From an uncultured Spirochaetota bacterium (GTDB lineage: Bacteria; Spirochaetota; Spirochaetia; SZUA-6; Fen-1364), in assembly GCA_963753085.1 (NCBI GenBank), contig CAVWBF010000025.1, positions 7,676 to 71,675 on the forward strand: a DNA stretch of 64,000 nucleotides, given 5' to 3'. This document shows, piece by piece, positions 1,894 to 9,987 of this stretch (positions within the stretch are counted from its first letter, which is position 1; each line of letters starts with the position of its first letter). Under the pieces are notes generated by a model that saw only the letters and a program-made list of their open reading frames with translations, was not told the DNA's origin and searched no databases. Made by a program: the position numbers and the translations under genes.

Positions 1894-2985
1894 ATGACCA
1901 TGAACCAGGCGGTTGAGACGCGCTTGCATGTTATGACAAGGACGACATCCTCGGTGCTCTGGAACGATTCCTGCTCCCTGCAGGAGCTTGGGGACTCCAT
2001 TCAGAACAACGGCGCCGTGGGCGCCACCTGCAATCCTGTGATCGTTCTTACTGTTCTGAAGAAGGAGTGGGCGCTCTGGAAAGACCGGGTTGCAGCGCTC
2101 ATCCAGGAGATGCCCTGTGCTTCCGAGGGCGAGATTGCGTGGCGGCTCGTGGAGGAGATGTCCATCAAGGCAGCCGGGCTCCTCAAGCCGGTCTTCGACC
2201 GTGAGAAAGGGAGGAACGGACGTCTTTCCATTCAGACGGATCCCCGGCTGTTCCGCGACCCCCGGGCCATTGTGGAGCAGGCAGAGCGCTTTGCAGCTCT
2301 TGCACCAAACATGATCGTGAAGATCCCGGCCACCCGGGCCGGCATCGAGGCAATCGAGGAGGCCACCTGGAGGGGGATCAGCATCAACGCAACGGTCAGC
2401 TTCACGCTTCCGCAGGCAATTGCGGTTGCCGAGGCAGTGGAGAGGGGGCTCAAGCGACGGGAAAAGGAGAAGAAGGACATCACCCGCATGGGGCCGGTGT
2501 GCACGCTCATGGTCGGACGCCTGGACGACTGGCTCAAGGTGGTGGCGGAAAAACAGGGCATCATCGCGGATCCCTGGGCCCTGGACTGGGCGGGGGTTGC
2601 CGTGTTCAAGAAGGCGTACCGGATCTACCGGGAAAGAGGATACCGACTTCGCCTCCTGTCAGCAGCCTTTCGAAATCACCTCCACTGGAGCGAGCTCATT
2701 GGCGGTGACGTGGTGATCTCTCCGCCGTTCGAATGGCAGAAGCGGTTTAACGATTCCACCGTCAGCGTCGAGAACCGGATCGACAGGCCTGTGGATCCTC
2801 GTACGGTCGAAGAGCTGGAGAAGCGTTTCGCGGATTTCCGTCGGTCTTTCGATGAGAAGGGCATGACCCCGGAGGAGTTCGACACTTTCGGCGCGACCCG
2901 AAGGACTCTTCGGCAGTTCTGCAAGGCGGTCGACGACCTGAGCGGCGTGATCAGGGATCAGATGGTGCCTAACCCCGACGCCTGA
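1894..2985 (+). CDS. transaldolase-family protein with atypical catalytic residues, within the iol operon
   Basis: LWNDS, GATCNP, Schiff-base VKIPAT, INATVSF and VGRLDD motifs. Starts 4 nt after the iolE stop. Confidence 0.88.
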   Translation: MTMNQAVETRLHVMTRTTSSVLWNDSCSLQELGDSIQNNGAVGATCNPVIVLTVLKKEWALWKDRVAALIQEMPCASEGEIAWRLVEEMSIKAAGLLKPVFDREKGRNGRLSIQTDPRLFRDPRAIVEQAERFAALAPNMIVKIPATRAGIEAIEEATWRGISINATVSFTLPQAIAVAEAVERGLKRREKEKKDITRMGPVCTLMVGRLDDWLKVVAEKQGIIADPWALDWAGVAVFKKAYRIYRERGYRLRLLSAAFRNHLHWSELIGGDVVISPPFEWQKRFNDSTVSVENRIDRPVDPRTVEELEKRFADFRRSFDEKGMTPEEFDTFGATRRTLRQFCKAVDDLSGVIRDQMVPNPDA

Positions 2986-3041: not shown

Positions 3042-3088
3042 GGAAGTGCTTCCGTTTTTTTTAAGCCCCACTATGCAAGCGTTTGCAT
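3042..3088. promoter_or_regulatory. two LacI/GalR-type operator-like palindromes
   Basis: GGAAGTGCTTCC (3042-3053) and ATGCAAGCGTTTGCAT (3073-3088), downstream of the promoter. Confidence 0.55.
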
Positions 3089-3121
3089 CGCAAACGCGAA
3101 AATCTTTCCGAGGAGGTGCGT

Positions 3122-4045
3122 ATGCGGAAGGTTCTAGTCTTTGCGCTAGTGGCTTTGATGGCGGCGCCGCTCATTGCGACGGCTGCGCCGAAGCTGAAGA
3201 TGGGCGTCACGATAGAAGATTTCAATGACGTTTTCATGCGGTACGCCCTGGACCAGCTGACCGCTGAGGCAACCAAGAACAACCTCGACATCATCGCGGC
3301 TGACGGGAAACGCGACCCGCAAGAGCAGCTCAAACAGGTCGAGAACTTCATCACGCAGGGCGTGGATGCCATCCTGATCCACGTCATCGACCAGACCCTT
3401 GCGCCGAACATCACGAAGGAATGCCTGGCCGCGAACATTCCCCTTGTTTACTTCAACCGCAAGCCGGATGACTCAGCGCTGGTTGCCGGCAAGGCCGTCG
3501 CAGTCGCCTCCCCCGAGGTGGTTGCAGGAAGCCTGGAGGCCGAGTTCGTGGCAAAGAAGCTGAACGGCAAGGGCAACGTCGGCATCCTGATGGGCACCAT
3601 GGGAAGCGCGCCGCAGATCGGCCGCACCCAGGGGTCCAAAGATGTGCTGGCGAAATACCCAGGCATCAAGGTGGTGCGTGAGCAGACTGCCAACTTCCAG
3701 AGGCCCGAAGCGCTCACGGTGGTTGAGAACTGGCTGGCCGGCGACGTGAAGCTCGACGCGATCATCGCCAACAACGACGAGATGGCCCTCGGCGCAGTGC
3801 TGGTCCTCGAAGAGAAGCACATGAAGGACAAGGTGATCGTGACCGGTGTTGATGCGACCTCGGACGCCTTGAAGTTCATCGCAGACAAGCGGCTCGACAT
3901 GACCGTGTTCCAGAACGGTGGAGCGCAGGGCCGCGGAGCTGTTCAGACCGCCTTGAAGCTGATCAAGCATCAGATGGTCCCCACGTTCACCGCAATCCCC
4001 TTCGAACCGGTGACGTACGACAACTACAAGAAGTACCTGAAGTAG
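3122..4045 (+). CDS. sugar (probably inositol) ABC transporter substrate-binding protein, CUT2/RbsB family
   Basis: Signal peptide MRKVLVFALVALMAAPLIATA; QVENFITQGVDAI, ANNDEMALGA and GVDAT motifs; AGGAGG RBS. Confidence 0.9.
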   Translation: MRKVLVFALVALMAAPLIATAAPKLKMGVTIEDFNDVFMRYALDQLTAEATKNNLDIIAADGKRDPQEQLKQVENFITQGVDAILIHVIDQTLAPNITKECLAANIPLVYFNRKPDDSALVAGKAVAVASPEVVAGSLEAEFVAKKLNGKGNVGILMGTMGSAPQIGRTQGSKDVLAKYPGIKVVREQTANFQRPEALTVVENWLAGDVKLDAIIANNDEMALGAVLVLEEKHMKDKVIVTGVDATSDALKFIADKRLDMTVFQNGGAQGRGAVQTALKLIKHQMVPTFTAIPFEPVTYDNYKKYLK

Positions 4046-4057
4046 GGTAGAATACGG

Positions 4058-4086
4058 CAGGGGCCGGATGAAAAGTCCGGCCCCTG
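4058..4086 (+). terminator. stem-loop after the SBP gene (mRNA stabiliser or partial terminator)
   Basis: Perfect 11-bp stem CAGGGGCCGGA/TCCGGCCCCTG with a 7-nt loop. Confidence 0.6.
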
Positions 4087-4127
4087 GATTTGTCCTCACG
4101 ACTTCCTCTGCAAGGAGCGAGCGCGCT

Positions 4128-5648
4128 GTGAGCGAGTTCATCCTGGAAATGGAAGGCATTCATAAAAGCTTCCCCGGCGTGCATGCGCTGAACGGTGTTC
4201 AGCTCCACGTGCGCCCGGGTACGGTCCACGGCGTCATGGGGGAGAACGGTGCCGGCAAATCCACCCTCATGAAAGTGGCAATCGGCCTGTACAGGCCGGA
4301 TTCCGGTACCCTCAAGCTCCGCGGCCAGCCGGTGAGCTTCGAGAACGTCCATGATGCCCTGACGCGGGGCATCTCCATGATCCACCAGGAAATGAGCCCG
4401 CTTCCCTACATGACCGTGGCTCAGAATATCTTTCTGGGCCGTGAGATCAAGAACCGCCTGGGCCTGATCGATCACCGCGCCATCGACCGTGAATCAGAGG
4501 GGATACTCAAAGAGCTGAAAGTCAATCTCACCCCCCGGCAGATCATGGGGAGGCTCAGCGTTGCCCAGATGCAGTTGGTGGAGATAGCGGAAGCAGTCTC
4601 CCGCAAAGCGGACCTCATCATCATGGACGAGCCGTCCTCTGCCCTGACTGAAAAGGAAGTCGGGCACCTGTTCTCCATCATCAAGGACCTGAAGCAGCGC
4701 GGCGTGGCAGTCATCTATATCACGCACAAGATGGACGAGGTTTTCGCCATTACTGACGAGGTGAGTGTCTACCGGGACGGGGAGTTCGTTGGCCGGGAGG
4801 ACAGCGTGAACCTCACCCGGGAGAAGCTGATCAAGATGATGGTGGGCCGAACCATTGATCAGTTCTTCCAGAAGGAAAAAGCGGAGGTCGGCAAGCCCGT
4901 CCTGGAGGTGGAAGGGCTCACGCGGCGCGGTTATTTCCATGACATCAGCTTTTCCGTGAAGGAAGGAGAGATCCTGGGGGTGGCGGGGCTGATCGGTGCG
5001 GGCAGGACCGAGGTGATGGAGTCGATGTTCGGCGTCACTCCCAAGCAGGCCGGCGTCGTGAAGGTTCTCGGGAAGCCGGTGAAGATCGAGACCCCGTATG
5101 ACGCCATCCGGCACGGGATGGCCTTCCTCACAGAAGACAGGAAGAGAAGCGGGCTGTACCTGAACCTGTCGGTGCGTGACAACATCACCATGCCGAGCCT
5201 GCGCAACAACCTGAACGCTCTTTTCATCAAGCACCGCGCGCTTCGAAAGCTCTGCGACGACGCCGTGGGTACGCTGCGGATCAAGACGCCCAGCCTGGAT
5301 CAGCTGGTGATGTTCCTGAGCGGCGGCAACCAGCAGAAAGTCCTCGTGTCGCGCTGGCTCGCCACCGTCCCGCGCCTCCTGATCCTGGACGAGCCGACGC
5401 GCGGGATCGATGTTGCGACGAAGAGCGAGATCTACCGGATCATGTCCAACCTCGCGAAGGAGGGGAAGGCAATCATCCTCATCTCCTCGGAAATGCCCGA
5501 GATCCTCGCGATGTCGGACAGGATCATGGTCATGCACGAGGGGCGGAAGGTCGGAGAGATCAGTCAGGCCGAGGCCACGCAGGAGAAGATCCTCCACATG
5601 GCCACCGGGGAGCCGCTGAGCACGTTCAAGGAAGTCCACTACTATTAG
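4128..5648 (+). CDS. sugar ABC transporter ATP-binding protein (RbsA/MglA type, two NBDs)
   Basis: GENGAGKST, MDEPSS, LSGGNQQK and LDEPTRGID motifs. GTG start after AAGGAG. Confidence 0.93.
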   Translation: MSEFILEMEGIHKSFPGVHALNGVQLHVRPGTVHGVMGENGAGKSTLMKVAIGLYRPDSGTLKLRGQPVSFENVHDALTRGISMIHQEMSPLPYMTVAQNIFLGREIKNRLGLIDHRAIDRESEGILKELKVNLTPRQIMGRLSVAQMQLVEIAEAVSRKADLIIMDEPSSALTEKEVGHLFSIIKDLKQRGVAVIYITHKMDEVFAITDEVSVYRDGEFVGREDSVNLTREKLIKMMVGRTIDQFFQKEKAEVGKPVLEVEGLTRRGYFHDISFSVKEGEILGVAGLIGAGRTEVMESMFGVTPKQAGVVKVLGKPVKIETPYDAIRHGMAFLTEDRKRSGLYLNLSVRDNITMPSLRNNLNALFIKHRALRKLCDDAVGTLRIKTPSLDQLVMFLSGGNQQKVLVSRWLATVPRLLILDEPTRGIDVATKSEIYRIMSNLAKEGKAIILISSEMPEILAMSDRIMVMHEGRKVGEISQAEATQEKILHMATGEPLSTFKEVHYY

Positions 5649-5668: not shown

Positions 5669-6679
5669 GTGATTGAGGCAGTCAAAATAGCACCAAGAAG
5701 GGAATCCCGCGTCCTGTCGCTCATGAGCAAATACAGCATCCTGCTGATCCTCGTGGGACTCTGCATCGTGATCGCAATCCTTTCCGGCGGGCTGTTCCTT
5801 CGGATCAACAACCTCCTGAACGTTCTGCGCCAGATCAGCGTCATCGGCATCATCGCCCTGGGCGTCACCATGTGTATCATCACCGCGGGGATCGATCTTT
5901 CCTCGGGCGCGGTGGTGGCCGCTGTCGCGGTGGCCGTGGCCAGCCTCATGCAGAGCGCGGACGCGATGGACCGCTTGTTCACGGGAGGACACCCCTGGCC
6001 GATCATTCCCGTGCTCCTCATCGGCCTGGCGGTCGGAGCCGCAATCGGCTTCGTCAATGGCAGCATGATTGCCTGGCTAAGGATCCCTCCCTTTATCGCC
6101 ACCCTTGGAATGATGACTTTTGCGCGTGGGTGGGCATTCATCTACTCGCAGGGACGACCCCGCGGCAGCCTGATTGACGGGTTCCAGGCCATCGGGCAGG
6201 GCGATGTCCTGGGCGTCCCCAACCCCGCCATCGTGCTTATTGTCTGCGTGGTGATCACCTACGTGATTCTCCAGCACACCCTGTGGGGACGCTACACGTA
6301 TGCCCTGGGAAGCAACCTGCAGGCAGCCGTCGTCTCGGGGATCAAGACCAACCGCTACCTCATCCTCGTCTACACGTATGCTGGCTTCCTGGCAGGGGTA
6401 GCGGCAATCGTTCTGACCGCAAGGATCGGCTCCGGTCAGCCGGGGCTCGGCCTGGGCTACGAGCTTGATGCCATTGCGGCCTCGGTCATCGGCGGCACGA
6501 GCCTCGCCGGAGGTCTGGGGAGCGCCGGCGGCACGCTGATCGGCGCGCTCATTATCGGCGTCATGAAGAACGGGCTGGACCTCCTGAACGTCTCAGCGGA
6601 TTTCCAGCAGGTGGCGCGCGCCATCATCATCGTGGTGGCGGTGACCATCGACGTGCGAAAGAACGTCAGAAGGAACTAA
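5669..6679 (+). CDS. sugar ABC transporter permease (RbsC family)
   Basis: GIDLSSG, IPPFIATLGMM and YELDAIAASVIGGTS motifs; hydrophobic. Confidence 0.93.
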   Translation: MIEAVKIAPRRESRVLSLMSKYSILLILVGLCIVIAILSGGLFLRINNLLNVLRQISVIGIIALGVTMCIITAGIDLSSGAVVAAVAVAVASLMQSADAMDRLFTGGHPWPIIPVLLIGLAVGAAIGFVNGSMIAWLRIPPFIATLGMMTFARGWAFIYSQGRPRGSLIDGFQAIGQGDVLGVPNPAIVLIVCVVITYVILQHTLWGRYTYALGSNLQAAVVSGIKTNRYLILVYTYAGFLAGVAAIVLTARIGSGQPGLGLGYELDAIAASVIGGTSLAGGLGSAGGTLIGALIIGVMKNGLDLLNVSADFQQVARAIIIVVAVTIDVRKNVRRN

Positions 6680-6680
6680 C

Positions 6681-7517
6681 CTACTCCCCGAGATACGTCA
6701 TACTCGCCTTGAGCGCGGAGGCCAGCTCGCTGTGGCCCAGGCGCTGCACTTCCGCGGCAAACGGCTCGAAGGAGATGTCCCCCTTGTACCCCAGCCGGTC
6801 GTGGTGGGCTATCTGCGCCTTGCAGAACGTGTGGTCTTTCGGTCCCGGAAGCACGCGGTGCTCGTCGCGATACTTCTCTTTTGCGATTCCTGAGTCGACT
6901 CCCGATACATGGATGAGGCCGGTGCTTGCCACCTCGTAATGCGGCCCGATGTCATTCTCCGTGTCCGGCCCCAGGTAGTGGTGGAACGTGTCATACACGG
7001 TGCGATAGCAGCTGAGGCCCGAGCTCCTGATTGTCTCCACCGCGACGAGGATGGATGCAAGGGAGGACTCCGGGAAGCCCAACGGCTCGACCAGTCCCAG
7101 GATTCCCTTCTTCATGAAAGAGGGCCCGAACGCCTTCAAGGCATCCACGGTTTCCGAAACCTTTGCCCTGGCGTCACGCGTGTCCGCGGTGTCGTTGTTG
7201 GGGCAGAGCACCACCGCGGGGCACTGGATCTCCGCCGCGATGTCGAGGAGCCTTTCCAGGTCGTCTGAAGCCTTCTGCCGGGCCGTCTTCAGGTTGAACT
7301 TCTGCACGGCGTTGATCGAGATGACCTTGATCCCGCTTGCTTTCGCCAACGCCAAGGCACGGGAGCCGGAGAGACCGTCAATGACCTGAACGCCGGGAAG
7401 ATCGTTTCGAAGCTCGACCTTTGAAAGGCCTAGATCAGCTGTAAACCGGAAGAAATCCTCGAGCCCCAGCGACGGGCACGTGATCCTGTTCACGGCGAAT
7501 CGACGCTTTTCGATCAT
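6681..7517 (-). CDS. xylose-isomerase-like TIM barrel protein, IolI-like (putative 2-keto-myo-inositol isomerase)
   Basis: VELRNDL, ISINAVQKFN, LVEPLGF, DTFHH, IHVSG and SFEPFA motifs. CAGGAGG RBS before the ATG at 7517; iol context. Confidence 0.8.
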   Translation of the reverse strand: MIEKRRFAVNRITCPSLGLEDFFRFTADLGLSKVELRNDLPGVQVIDGLSGSRALALAKASGIKVISINAVQKFNLKTARQKASDDLERLLDIAAEIQCPAVVLCPNNDTADTRDARAKVSETVDALKAFGPSFMKKGILGLVEPLGFPESSLASILVAVETIRSSGLSCYRTVYDTFHHYLGPDTENDIGPHYEVASTGLIHVSGVDSGIAKEKYRDEHRVLPGPKDHTFCKAQIAHHDRLGYKGDISFEPFAAEVQRLGHSELASALKASMTYLGE

Positions 7518-7646
7518 GGCGGGCCTCCTGTTCTTTTGCCACAACCTTACCACTGTGAGTATATTTCTTCTACCACGTCGTGTGAGCCCGCCCATGCCGC
7601 AGACAGCCACAAAGACAACGCGGCTTCCTAAGCAAGGAGGATCGAC

Positions 7647-9170
7647 ATGATAACAGCTGTCGAGCCGAAGCAACTGAAATACTGGGTCGGTGGAGAGTGG
7701 AAGACCTCGAACACCGACCATTACATGGACTGCTATGACCCCTCCATAGGAGAGGTCGTAGCGCGCACTCCCCAGTGCACACCTGAGGAAGTCCGGGCGG
7801 CAATTGCCGCAGCCAAGGCGGCTTTTCCGGCCTGGGCGGACACGCCTCCCAGCAAGCGGGCGCAGGTGCTCTTCCGGATGAAAAGCATCCTCGACCGCCA
7901 CGTGGATGAGCTTACGCACCTGGTTGCCGAGGAGCACGGCAAGGTCTGGGACGAGGCCATGGGGGACGTGCTCAAGGTCATCGAAGTGGTGGAGTACGCT
8001 GCGGGGGTGCCCCACCTCCTCAAGGGCCCCGCCATCATGAACGCCACCCCCGGGTACGACACGACACAATACATTGAGCCCCTCGGGGTGTTCGCGGGAA
8101 TCTCCCCGTGGAACTTCCCGGCGATGATCCCCATGGGGTGGATGGCTCCGCTGTGCATTGCGACGGGCAATACCATGGTGCTCAAGGCGGCAAGCTTCGT
8201 CCCGAGGTCCTCCATGCGCATCATGGAGCTTTGGCAGGAGGCCGGCCTTCCCCCCGGCGTGCTGAACCTCGTGACCTGCTCGAGGGCGGAGGCAGAGATC
8301 CTCCTCACCCACCCGGACGTGATGGGAATCTCCTTTGTCGGTTCAACATCTGTGGGCAAGCACATCTACGCGACGGCTGCCGCCAACGGAAAGCGCGTGC
8401 AGGCGCTCACCGAGGCAAAGAACCACGCACTCGTCATGAGGGATGCCCCCCTGGAGCGCACGGCCAAGGGGATCGTGAACTCTGCCTGCGGGTGCGCGGG
8501 GGAGAGGTGCATGGCCCTCCCCGTGGCCGTGGTGGAAGATGCGATTGCAGATCAGCTCATCGAGGCGCTCGTGAAAGTGATGGAAGGCCTCAAGATCGGG
8601 CCGGCGTACGACAAGACAAGCCAGCTCGGTCCGCTGGTCAACGCGGATCATCGCGCAAGTGTCATTTCCTGGATCCAGAAAGGAATCGAAGAAGGCGCGG
8701 AGATGGTTCTCGACGGCCGTGACGTCTCCGTCCGCGGCTTCGAGAAGGGATTCTACCTGGGGCCAACGCTCTTCGATCACGTGAAGAAGGGCATGAGCGT
8801 CGGGGACCGCGAGATCTTCGGTCCGGTGCTCTGCATCAAGCGGGTGAAAAGCTTCGACGAGGGCGTCGAGCTGATGAACGAGAGCGAGTTCGGGAACGGG
8901 AGCGTGATCTACACGCAGAGCGGCTACTATGCCAGGGAGTTCAGCCGCCGCTCCCACGCCGGCATGGTCGGGGTGAATGTGGGCATTCCCGTTCCCCTTG
9001 CGATGTTCGGTTTCACCGGGCACAAGGCCTCGTTCTTCGGCGACCTTCACACCATGGGAACGGACGGGGTGCGGTTCTACACCGAGCTGAAGAGCGTCAC
9101 CTCGCACTGGTTCTCCGAGAAGGAAGGGCGCGAGGGTCGGGTCCGCAACAGCTGGGACGGAATGATCTGA
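7647..9170 (+). CDS. iolA: CoA-acylating (methyl)malonate-semialdehyde dehydrogenase
   Basis: PWNFPAMIP, SFVGST, EAKNHA, GERCMA, EIFGPVL and GMVGVNVGIPVP motifs; AAGGAGG RBS. Confidence 0.93.
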   Translation: MITAVEPKQLKYWVGGEWKTSNTDHYMDCYDPSIGEVVARTPQCTPEEVRAAIAAAKAAFPAWADTPPSKRAQVLFRMKSILDRHVDELTHLVAEEHGKVWDEAMGDVLKVIEVVEYAAGVPHLLKGPAIMNATPGYDTTQYIEPLGVFAGISPWNFPAMIPMGWMAPLCIATGNTMVLKAASFVPRSSMRIMELWQEAGLPPGVLNLVTCSRAEAEILLTHPDVMGISFVGSTSVGKHIYATAAANGKRVQALTEAKNHALVMRDAPLERTAKGIVNSACGCAGERCMALPVAVVEDAIADQLIEALVKVMEGLKIGPAYDKTSQLGPLVNADHRASVISWIQKGIEEGAEMVLDGRDVSVRGFEKGFYLGPTLFDHVKKGMSVGDREIFGPVLCIKRVKSFDEGVELMNESEFGNGSVIYTQSGYYAREFSRRSHAGMVGVNVGIPVPLAMFGFTGHKASFFGDLHTMGTDGVRFYTELKSVTSHWFSEKEGREGRVRNSWDGMI

Positions 9171-9207: not shown

Positions 9208-9987
9208 CTACGGCCCCCAGATCTTCGCCGCTGGGTCCATGACCCACTTGTGCTCCGGTACGAAGGTCGGCGTGCCATAGCGGGCGCCGTCGAGGTGCCG
9301 AATCACCCAGACATAGAACATTGCATAGCCGGGAGCGGCGGCGTGAGGGTGCACGGCGCCCGGGGGGATGATCACCGTGTCCCTGTTTCGAAGCAGGTAC
9401 GCCTCTTCCCCGATCTGACACAGGCCGAATCCCTCGGGCAGCTGGAAGCGATAATGGTAGATCTCCGGCTGCGGATGGTGATGCGGAGGGTAACTGGACC
9501 ATTTGCCGGGGAACGTGACCACCTCTCCGAGCACGAGGTTTGACGCGGAATCCCGGGGATCCTCCAGGATGGTTCGAACGATCCGGGTGGATGTCTCCTT
9601 CATCGTCCCCTTCCCGCGCTCTTCGCTTCGACATTCCTCCGGCGTGTAGAGGTGCACGGGAAAGGAACGCGGGTTTTCCGTTGCGTGCACGGAGATCTCC
9701 GCTCCGCCGTTGCCCGCCGTGAGGGTTGCCTCGGCTTTCGCCGGCAGGCTCAGGCACCACGGGGACTGCTCGAAGAGAGACTCCCGCGAAACGCGGTACT
9801 TTCTCCCTTCCCAGGCCATCTCCACGGAGCCGTCCAGGAGAAGGAAGGCCCTTTCCCTGCCAGGGCCCGAGCGGTGGGCCTGGCCGGCTTTCAGGCGCAG
9901 GATCCCGAAGTCCATCAGCGTCTCCGCGTGATGGGCTCCTATTTCCGTGTATCCGATGGGGAACTCGCGCTCGTTTCGTATCCGCAT
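9208..9987 (-). CDS. iolB: 5-deoxy-glucuronate isomerase
   Basis: LVLGEVVTFPGKWSSYPPHHH, EIYHYRF and HPHAAAPGYAMFYVW motifs. Confidence 0.9.
   Translation of the reverse strand: MRIRNEREFPIGYTEIGAHHAETLMDFGILRLKAGQAHRSGPGRERAFLLLDGSVEMAWEGRKYRVSRESLFEQSPWCLSLPAKAEATLTAGNGGAEISVHATENPRSFPVHLYTPEECRSEERGKGTMKETSTRIVRTILEDPRDSASNLVLGEVVTFPGKWSSYPPHHHPQPEIYHYRFQLPEGFGLCQIGEEAYLLRNRDTVIIPPGAVHPHAAAPGYAMFYVWVIRHLDGARYGTPTFVPEHKWVMDPAAKIWGP

Follow-up and report, generated by a model that had tools for sequence, protein, structure and literature searches.

A transaldolase-family protein in a spirochaete inositol operon as a candidate for a kinase-free ending of inositol breakdown

Released from phytate and plant lipids, myo-inositol ranks among the major carbon sources of soil and gut, and the bacterial pathway for its breakdown is textbook knowledge. 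The inositol (iol) gene cluster considered here raises the question of how that pathway could end where neither the kinase IolC nor the aldolase IolJ is encoded. The cluster lies at one edge of a stretch of 64,000 nucleotides from an uncultured soil bacterium of the Spirochaetota (GenBank assembly GCA_963753085.1; contig CAVWBF010000025.1, here C25, of 130 kb, positions 7676–71675), which we call the window and whose numbering we use unless another contig or locus is named. The host metagenome-assembled genome (MAG) comprises 3.64 Mb and is 77% complete. Within the cluster, at 1894–2985 on the + strand, an open reading frame (ORF) of 363 residues encodes a Gln-type transaldolase-family protein that we refer to as TALx. 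We propose, with a probability of roughly 0.55 and from sequence and genomic context, that TALx acts on unphosphorylated 5-dehydro-2-deoxygluconate (DKG), transfer to glyceraldehyde 3-phosphate (GAP) being the favoured mode.

The TALx gene and the missing kinase and aldolase

The genes of the cluster are ordered LacI regulator, iolG-like, iolG, iolD, iolE, TALx and sugar ABC importer, next to iolA and an iolB-like gene, and we found no terminator-like site in the run from the LacI gene to the importer permease. Profile searches bear out the assignment of iolD, iolE, iolA and iolB in a preliminary description of the window, the last as an iolB-like gene with a Pfam match of 198 bits that stays under the TIGR04378 cut-off. 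IolG, IolD, IolE and IolA all exceed their equivalog or subfamily cut-offs, and IolD, IolE and IolB are single-copy in the genome. The stop codon of iolE occupies 1887–1889 and the first ATG of TALx stands at 1894, in agreement with the 4-nt spacing given earlier. Because a GGAG at 1890–1893 lies directly against that ATG, the second ATG at 1900, 10 nt from iolE and 6 nt behind the GGAG, appears the likelier start. It would give a protein of 361 residues, and the closest homologue (P0002) has the same length. Residue numbers refer to the 363-residue frame throughout.

TALx belongs to the transaldolase superfamily, with a match to Pfam PF00923 (TAL_FSA) of 140.9 bits against a cut-off of 27 over residues 22–325. 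No other Pfam family was matched, including PF01116, PF09863 and PF22649. None of the NCBIfam cut-offs for transaldolases or fructose-6-phosphate aldolase (FSA) is reached: PRK03343 comes highest at 124 bits against 367, followed by TIGR00876 (89 against 234), TIGR00874 (63 against 396) and the FSA model TIGR00875 (37.6 against 246). An AlphaFold2 model built with 24 relatives in the alignment has a pLDDT of 95.8 and a transaldolase fold, and its top structural matches in Foldseek are all transaldolases (TM 0.78–0.84, identity 21–23%), the best solved neighbours being the long enzymes of Neisseria gonorrhoeae and Corynebacterium glutamicum; model and matches confirm the generic transaldolase fold only. 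Close relatives are annotated simply as 'transaldolase family protein', and the family comprises 357 clusters at 50% identity (E ≤ 1e-30).

The preliminary description had reported iolC and iolJ missing from the window and had cautioned that iolC might lie just upstream. The absence holds for the cluster, for contig C25 and for the 77% complete genome, as well as for 19 of 20 genomes with close homologues of TALx. The caution did not: the 7.7 kb upstream contain no iolC; the genes there encode LacI, the iolG-like protein and IolG, and those before them, of the ABC-2 and UbiA families, are unrelated. Genome-wide, no protein exceeds the IolC cut-off; the best PfkB reaches 147 bits against 300 and is encoded on contig C14, with none on C25. 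DUF2090 was not found in the genome, a query with the Cgl0159-type aldolase gave no match there, and none of the five class II aldolases of the genome is encoded on the 130-kb contig. Twelve related spirochaete genomes with the same cluster likewise lack IolC over the cut-off.

The 147-bit PfkB gene on C14 adjoins one for a class II ketose-bisphosphate aldolase (C14:457964–459964; locus L041 8950–10964), and the pair belongs to a separate operon that also encodes sugar permeases of the ABC type and a ROK-family regulator. We also considered, and rejected, a PfkB of 215–237 bits from related spirochaetes as a hidden IolC: it scores equally as a fructokinase, its neighbours are HtrA/RecQ- and NuoEF-like, and it has no match in this genome.

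Active-site residues and the proposed reaction

We aligned E. coli K-12 TalB and FsaA, both from the annotated record, with TALx and its relatives using MAFFT, and compared solved transaldolases using HMMER. TALx retains D25, N47, K143, N165, T167, R209 and R260, which correspond to D17, N35, K132, N154, T156, R181 and R228 of TalB. At three further positions it departs from that enzyme: Glu96 is replaced by Gln114 (Gln59 in FsaA), Phe178 by Met206 (Tyr131 in FsaA) and Ser226 by Ala258. The residue map drawn from the sequence at the outset, including these three replacements, proved right in this alignment and in 35 of 35 relatives. In TalB, two arginines and a serine bind the phosphate of the acceptor, as stated in a passage of PMC3962226; of this site (R181, S226 and R228), TALx keeps R209 and R260 and has Ala258 in place of the serine. 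The same source describes how the single exchange F178Y turns TalB into an aldolase, making this tyrosine the known switch. The pairing of Gln with Met is, as had been pointed out, neither the Glu/Phe of transaldolase (E96/F178 in TalB) nor the Gln/Tyr of FSA (Q59/Y131 in FsaA).

The Met206 column is aligner-dependent because a small insertion adjoins it, and MAFFT placed it in two ways in two runs; HMMER alignments to the C. glutamicum (PDB 3r5e) and N. gonorrhoeae (3clm) enzymes set FF(V/I)SR opposite LMVGR, that is, Phe opposite Met. The signature D-N-Q-K-N-T-M-R-A-R, in which TalB has E, F and S in place of Q, M and A, is found in all 35 relatives cut from genome loci, and D25, N47, Q114, K143 and R209 are invariant in a 24-sequence alignment that reaches down to 30% identity. 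Gln, Met and Ala characterize the family and are no mutation confined to this protein. Both phosphate-site arginines are likewise invariant across all three genomic contexts in which the family occurs. In the AlphaFold2 model, K143 lies inside strand 140–145, Q114, T167 and M206 end strands 110–114, 164–167 and 202–206, and A258 follows strand 253–257. In one locus (L033), a canonical short transaldolase with Glu/Phe is encoded next to a TALx.

Judged by these residues, TALx is not a classical transaldolase (EC 2.2.1.2), for which Glu96 and Phe178 are diagnostic, nor an FSA/TalC enzyme, as it keeps the Gln but has Met at the position of the acid–base Tyr131 and a length of 363 residues as opposed to about 220. 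With classical transaldolases, both TalB and the long mycobacterial-type proteins represented by 3r5e and 3clm, it shares the TIM-barrel fold, the Schiff-base lysine, the equivalents of Asp17, Asn35, Asn154 and Thr156 and both phosphate-site arginines, and a transfer of a dihydroxyacetone (DHA) unit is proposed alike; it differs in its inositol context, as opposed to pentose phosphates, and in a proposed donor that is an unphosphorylated keto-acid. FsaA (220 residues) has in common with TALx the superfamily and the glutamine (Q59/Q114). Variants with this glutamine have reportedly also been made in the laboratory to study or create aldolase activity, the active aldolases being said to carry a tyrosine at 178 as well. 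According to their entry titles, TalB E96Q and E96Q/F178Y (PDB 4rz5 and 4rz6) and the N. gonorrhoeae E93Q variant (7oey) bear the same Glu-to-Gln exchange as TALx; these proteins are artificial, whereas TALx is natural and has Met at the position of residue 178.

In the reaction that we propose, DKG, the product of IolB, would be the ketose donor of TALx acting as a class I Schiff-base lysine enzyme. Lys143 would form an imine at C5 of DKG, and the C3–C4 bond would then be cleaved. Malonate semialdehyde would be released and oxidized by IolA, and the enzyme-bound DHA unit would pass to GAP, giving fructose 6-phosphate (F6P). Were DKG cleaved in this way, the kinase IolC and the aldolase IolJ would be unnecessary. 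We infer substrate, product and acceptor, the first from the CH2OH-CO-CHOH head that DKG alone has among the pathway intermediates. Transfer is preferred over simple cleavage because the position of the FSA tyrosine is occupied by Met, because both phosphate-site arginines are invariant in the three contexts, and because no DHA kinase gene lies beside TALx and a Dak1 search gave no match in 11 of 27 TALx genomes. A full-text literature search, outside which subscription journals and supplements lay, returned no paper in which inositol catabolism involves an enzyme of the transaldolase family, and we could not find a kinase-free transaldolase ending of inositol breakdown described in print.

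Gene neighbourhoods and alternative readings

Homologues of TALx are strongly enriched beside iol genes. We examined two sets of loci, calling neighbours in high-GC loci from ORFs filtered by GC content at third codon positions; the calls for L022, L028 and L031 are rough. In the first set, retrieved with TALx-type query P0001 and comprising 20 genome loci, the gene stands beside IolD, IolE or IolB genes in 12: ten spirochaete loci (L016, L018, L019, L021, L023–L027 and L032), a Propionibacteriaceae MAG (L028) and a Limnocylindrales MAG (L031). Two others (L017 and L030) have it beside IolG, one of them also with an IolA-type gene, five show other contexts (L020, L022 and L033–L035) and one lies on a 1.4-kb contig. 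IolC exceeds the cut-off in a single genome of this set, G013, where GntR, IolC, a Cgl0159-type aldolase and IolB are encoded together on a contig other than that of TALx. The second set was built from an Acidobacteriota TALx query, for which at least 557 stretches encode relatives; among the best 80 loci, all from MAGs and mostly Acidobacteriota, IolD lies within 10 kb of TALx in 59, IolE in 56, IolB in 61 and IolA in 11, and IolC, PfkB, a class II or Cgl0159-type aldolase and DhaK in none. Nine of the 80 lack any of IolD, IolE, IolB and IolA, some of them on very short contigs. Taken together, relatives of TALx occur in iol clusters of at least five phyla. In two of the spirochaete MAGs (L023, at 5682–7071, and L024), split transketolase genes, an IclR gene and a TIM-barrel gene lie directly upstream of TALx–IolA in a rearranged iol cluster.

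A survey of 14 longer proteins with a TALx match (E ≤ 1e-40) shows the same association at the level of gene fusion. In P0278, P0134 and P0280, TALx is joined to an IolE part that exceeds its cut-off, while P0273 and P0274 have weaker IolE-like domains. The partner is IolB in P0283, P0281 and, above the cut-off, P0276, and IolG in P0279; a further protein, P0155, combines TALx with KduI/IolB. P0272 (664 residues) carries, ahead of a TALx half with 68% identity, a domain like the 5-keto-L-gluconate epimerase IolO (335 bits, above the cut-off), and this combination hints at substrates among other keto-sugar acids for some members of the family. Some of these fusions may be merges made in gene calling, in which case they show at least adjacency in further independent genomes.

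Retrieval by IolD alignment gave a third set of 80 loci from many phyla, in which cluster-level labels denote the best tblastn query and not a curated cut-off. TALx and IolD are at most 10 kb apart in 11 of them (L067, L069, L084, L088, L092, L094, L100, L101, L114, L115 and L130), three of which (L088, L094 and L100) also hold an IolC-like gene and a Cgl0159-like aldolase gene; an IolC-like gene is present in 50 of the 69 loci that lack TALx. For a comparison at the level of genomes we used the first 50 of the 80. TALx profile scores are bimodal here, with 430–498 bits in 13 genomes and at most 141 bits for ordinary transaldolases, and IolC exceeds its cut-off in 37 genomes. Both occur in 3 genomes, TALx alone in 10, IolC alone in 34 (including G339, locus L071, which is flagged unpublished) and neither in 3. 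The anticorrelation of TALx with IolC that was predicted at the outset is therefore present (Fisher p = 6e-6, a significance that is overstated as relatedness is ignored), but it is not strict, since six genomes among all those analysed hold both. An even sample of 301 Spirochaetota genomes contains IolD in 14, including the present one (G000); of the other 13, three have TALx and nine have IolC over the cut-off, and one that is 96% complete (G259) has TALx without IolC. All genomes in which we saw this combination of TALx and no IolC are MAGs.

The six genomes that combine TALx with IolC and an aldolase are G013, G305, G313, Actinomyces bovis, A. timonensis and Propionibacterium ruminifibrarum. 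The order in the one cluster of G305 is class II aldolase, IolC, IolB, TALx, IolA, ABC importer, IolD, IolE, IolG and IolG; G313, of the same genus, has one TALx-type and one canonical cluster. Both Actinomyces species and P. ruminifibrarum carry TALx in one locus with IolC, a Cgl0159-like aldolase, IolB, IolD and IolA. Because it coexists with IolC and an aldolase in these organisms, TALx is not merely a substitute for a lost IolC; coexistence could be explained by a parallel branch that delivers F6P directly and would be useful for gluconeogenic needs on a C3/C2 substrate.

Some genomes have neither enzyme. IolD over the cut-off occurs without IolC or TALx in G270, a complete 2.8-Mb genome of the same class, in G195, and in G325, G331 and G332 of the 50 IolD-anchored genomes, which may hint at a further way of ending the pathway. 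Seven gut or rumen Clostridia MAGs (L054 and L056–L061) have compact iol clusters with IolD and varying IolE, IolG and IolB, the last in 3 of 7; IolC was not found within 10 kb of these clusters, and it is encoded elsewhere over the cut-off in 6 of the 7 genomes.

The family also occurs away from iol genes. A paralogue in the same genome, TALx2, is 70% identical to TALx and of the same Gln/Met type; its operon (C15:40009–49842; locus L135 2010–11843) encodes a sugar ABC importer, a fucose-isomerase-like protein, an aldehyde:ferredoxin oxidoreductase, TALx2 and a 395-residue protein lacking a Pfam match, and contains no kinase gene. Three Bacillota loci combine split transketolase genes, a fucose-isomerase-like protein and TALx, with a short canonical transaldolase in L033 and L035 and an Fe-alcohol dehydrogenase in L034 and L035. 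Both arrangements pair a ketose-making enzyme, TALx and an aldehyde-disposing enzyme, as do IolB, TALx and IolA. Loci L020 and L022 encode a Zn-dependent dehydrogenase, an SDR protein and TALx, together with an aldehyde:ferredoxin oxidoreductase or an aldo-keto reductase; they have no isomerase gene, so that a dehydrogenase would have to supply the ketose. In a maximum likelihood tree of 49 sequences, these contexts are scattered among iol-linked ones. Given that two further sugar contexts without a kinase harbour the family, specificity for the inositol intermediate is a property that we infer. At least two TAL_FSA matches are present in 23 of 27 TALx genomes, and a canonical transaldolase in 15 (11 at 240 bits or more, and four short ones at 176–189 bits). 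In the present genome and several related spirochaetes, TAL_FSA scores are only in the range of TALx (about 100–140 bits). Six such genomes (G001, G003, G004, G011, G012 and G017) have 3–5 TAL_FSA matches each at 57–140 bits, nearly all at 100–140 and none at 240 or more, and the Gln-type family may have expanded specifically in this lineage.

Several observations weigh against the proposal that TALx transfers a DHA unit from DKG to GAP. At 77% completeness, absence of genes alone is no proof, and the PfkB–aldolase pair on C14 could act in trans. The iolB-like gene is under its equivalog cut-off (TIGR04378, 112 bits against 205). The six genomes with TALx, IolC and aldolase speak against strict exclusion, and in a seventh that was counted as having TALx without IolC (G333), a 247-bit PfkB adjoins IolD and IolB; scoring it as IolC changes the p value to 5e-5. 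TALx has neither of the acid–base residues known from the fold, the transaldolase Glu and the FSA Tyr, so its catalytic competence is only assumed; speculatively, their role could fall to the carboxylate of the substrate itself or to another conserved residue, such as E155, K239 or Y319. Three further points on the same side bear on alternative activities. Gln at the position of Glu96 is the state found in FSA, and TALx could accordingly work as a retro-aldolase in the manner of FSA, with DKG yielding malonate semialdehyde and free DHA, the latter for a DHA kinase. Free DHA could be handled, as this genome has two Dak1 homologues and at least one is present in 16 of the 27 TALx genomes. We nevertheless regard retro-aldol cleavage as unlikely: the acid–base tyrosine of FSA, the switch to aldolase activity in PMC3962226, is Met in 35 of 35 relatives, both arginines of the acceptor phosphate site are invariant, Dak1 was not found in the other 11 genomes, and no DhaK gene occurs at a distance of up to 10 kb from TALx or IolD in the window and 104 other loci, nor from TALx in another 80.

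The third point is that a canonical transaldolase was not found in this genome, so that a TALx paralogue could serve the pentose phosphate pathway. TALx might then be a co-transcribed pentose-phosphate transaldolase that stands outside the main inositol route, or an enzyme for another ketose derived from a cyclitol or sugar acid, in keeping with its occurrence outside iol clusters (L020, L022, L033–L035 and the C15 paralogue), with the IolO-like partner in P0272 and with its presence beside complete canonical sets in six genomes. Such a role seems quite unlikely given that 15 of 27 TALx genomes have a canonical transaldolase as well, that the catalytic Glu is lost, and that the family is linked to IolD, IolE and IolB in at least five phyla, anticorrelated with IolC and fused to IolE and IolB; moreover, the non-iol contexts do not stand apart on the tree. 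The preliminary description had also entertained TALx as a class I replacement for IolJ alone. In that case a non-orthologous kinase would phosphorylate DKG, and TALx would cleave the resulting 6-phospho-DKG (DKG-6-P) to malonate semialdehyde and dihydroxyacetone phosphate (DHAP). Class I substitution does occur elsewhere, a Cgl0159-like gene following IolC in most actinomycete loci, and the PfkB of 215–237 bits in many related spirochaetes or the one on C14 here might supply the kinase. The former, however, is the protein with equal fructokinase score and non-iol neighbours that is unmatched in this genome; no kinase of any family is encoded in 12 spirochaete clusters, no PfkB in 80 Acidobacteriota-type loci, and the loci that do have IolC have a class II or Cgl0159-like aldolase too. 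The known donors of transaldolase-family enzymes have a free hydroxyl at C1, the carbon that is phosphorylated in DKG-6-P. Replacement of IolJ is the least supported of these alternatives, because the conserved clusters lack a kinase, and we consider it very improbable. The IolC/IolJ-independent pathway first suggested for this locus, by comparison, is supported on genomic evidence, and none of the in silico tests that we ran refuted it.

The surrounding cluster and its relation to known pathways

Upstream of the window, the cluster opens with the LacI regulator gene, followed by the iolG-like gene (344 bits, slightly under the cut-off) and iolG (482 bits against 355). The 3' part of iolD, for 3D-(3,5/4)-trihydroxycyclohexane-1,2-dione acylhydrolase, occupies 1–972 on the + strand and matches TIGR04377 with 386 bits; the gene begins 894 nt upstream of the window and at full length (locus L009 6782–8647) reaches 916 bits against a cut-off of 715. 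The myo-inosose-2 dehydratase gene iolE follows at 873–1889 (+; TIGR04379, 418 bits against 290). Its ORF was taken from the first GTG; with residue 47 as the first that the profile matches, the true start may be near 1000. Downstream of TALx, the sugar ABC importer is encoded on the + strand by genes for a periplasmic binding protein (3083–4045; Pfam Peripla_BP_4, 182.7 bits), a two-domain ATPase (4068–5648; RbsA/AraG/XylG-type models at about 560 bits, all below cut-off) and a permease (5669–6679; Pfam BPD_transp_2, 145.9 bits). The binding-protein gene after TALx is kept in the clusters of related spirochaetes.

On the opposite strand, 6681–7601 encodes a xylose-isomerase-like TIM barrel of the IolH/IolI-like fold (Pfam AP_endonuc_2, 58 bits) for which no NCBIfam family was found at E ≤ 1e-8; its ORF runs to 8312, overlapping iolA, and is probably over-extended. 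The gene is kept in 12 related spirochaete iol–TALx loci and could be IolH/IolI-like or an epimerase. The iolA gene, for the CoA-acylating malonate/methylmalonate-semialdehyde dehydrogenase, lies at 7647–9170 on the + strand (TIGR01722, 556.7 bits against 448.5), and a second paralogue of this enzyme, 78% identical to the cluster copy, is encoded at C19:57589–59082. The iolB-like gene, for a 5-deoxy-glucuronate isomerase of the KduI/IolB cupin type, occupies 9208–9987 on the − strand and is the one with the 198-bit match to Pfam KduI.

The canonical route through IolC and IolJ, or through a class I aldolase of the DUF2090/Cgl0159 type, has the same net effect as the one proposed here, converting DKG to malonate semialdehyde and a C3 unit that enters glycolysis, and shares with it IolG, IolE, IolD and IolB upstream and IolA downstream. 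It uses two enzymes and one ATP, whereas the TALx route would need one enzyme and no phosphorylated intermediate, and would yield F6P (or DHA) and not DHAP. A parallel in logic is the sulfo-transaldolase pathway described by Frommeyer et al. (2020; PMC7491151). There an isomerase forms an unphosphorylated ketose with an acidic tail, sulfofructose, from which 6-deoxy-6-sulfofructose transaldolase moves the glycerone part (C3) to GAP; F6P results, and the acidic aldehyde sulfolactaldehyde is set free for a dehydrogenase or reductase. The kinase-free sequence of isomerase, transaldolase and aldehyde enzyme in that pathway resembles IolB, TALx and IolA. TALx lies outside the clade of that enzyme: the match to BmSF-TAL (PDB 8bc3) is weak, at 31 bits and E = 1.7e-6 over residues 107–179 only, and sulfofructose transaldolase is a short protein of the decameric type, unlike TALx.

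Genome surveys score inositol use by iolB, iolC, iolD and iolE and put the absence of a core gene down to faulty assembly (PMC9430895). If the function proposed for TALx is true, many soil bacteria that lack iolC would be real inositol users that are now miscounted, and the pathway would have an ending that dispenses with a dedicated kinase and delivers F6P directly. TALx would also represent a natural third catalytic solution of the transaldolase fold, with neither Glu nor Tyr, of relevance to enzymology and to biocatalysis with unphosphorylated donors.

More tentatively, and at somewhat less than even odds, we suggest that the Gln/Met-type transaldolases are a large undescribed family at the core of a general kinase-free catabolic module. 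That module would consist of an aldose–ketose isomerase, a DHA-transferring transaldolase and an aldehyde oxidoreductase. IolB, TALx and IolA would then be its most widespread use, and the main ending of inositol breakdown in soil Acidobacteriota, Spirochaetota and Chloroflexota. The sulfo-transaldolase pathway would in turn be one case of a broader way for unphosphorylated ketoses to enter glycolysis as F6P, with GAP as the catalytic carrier.

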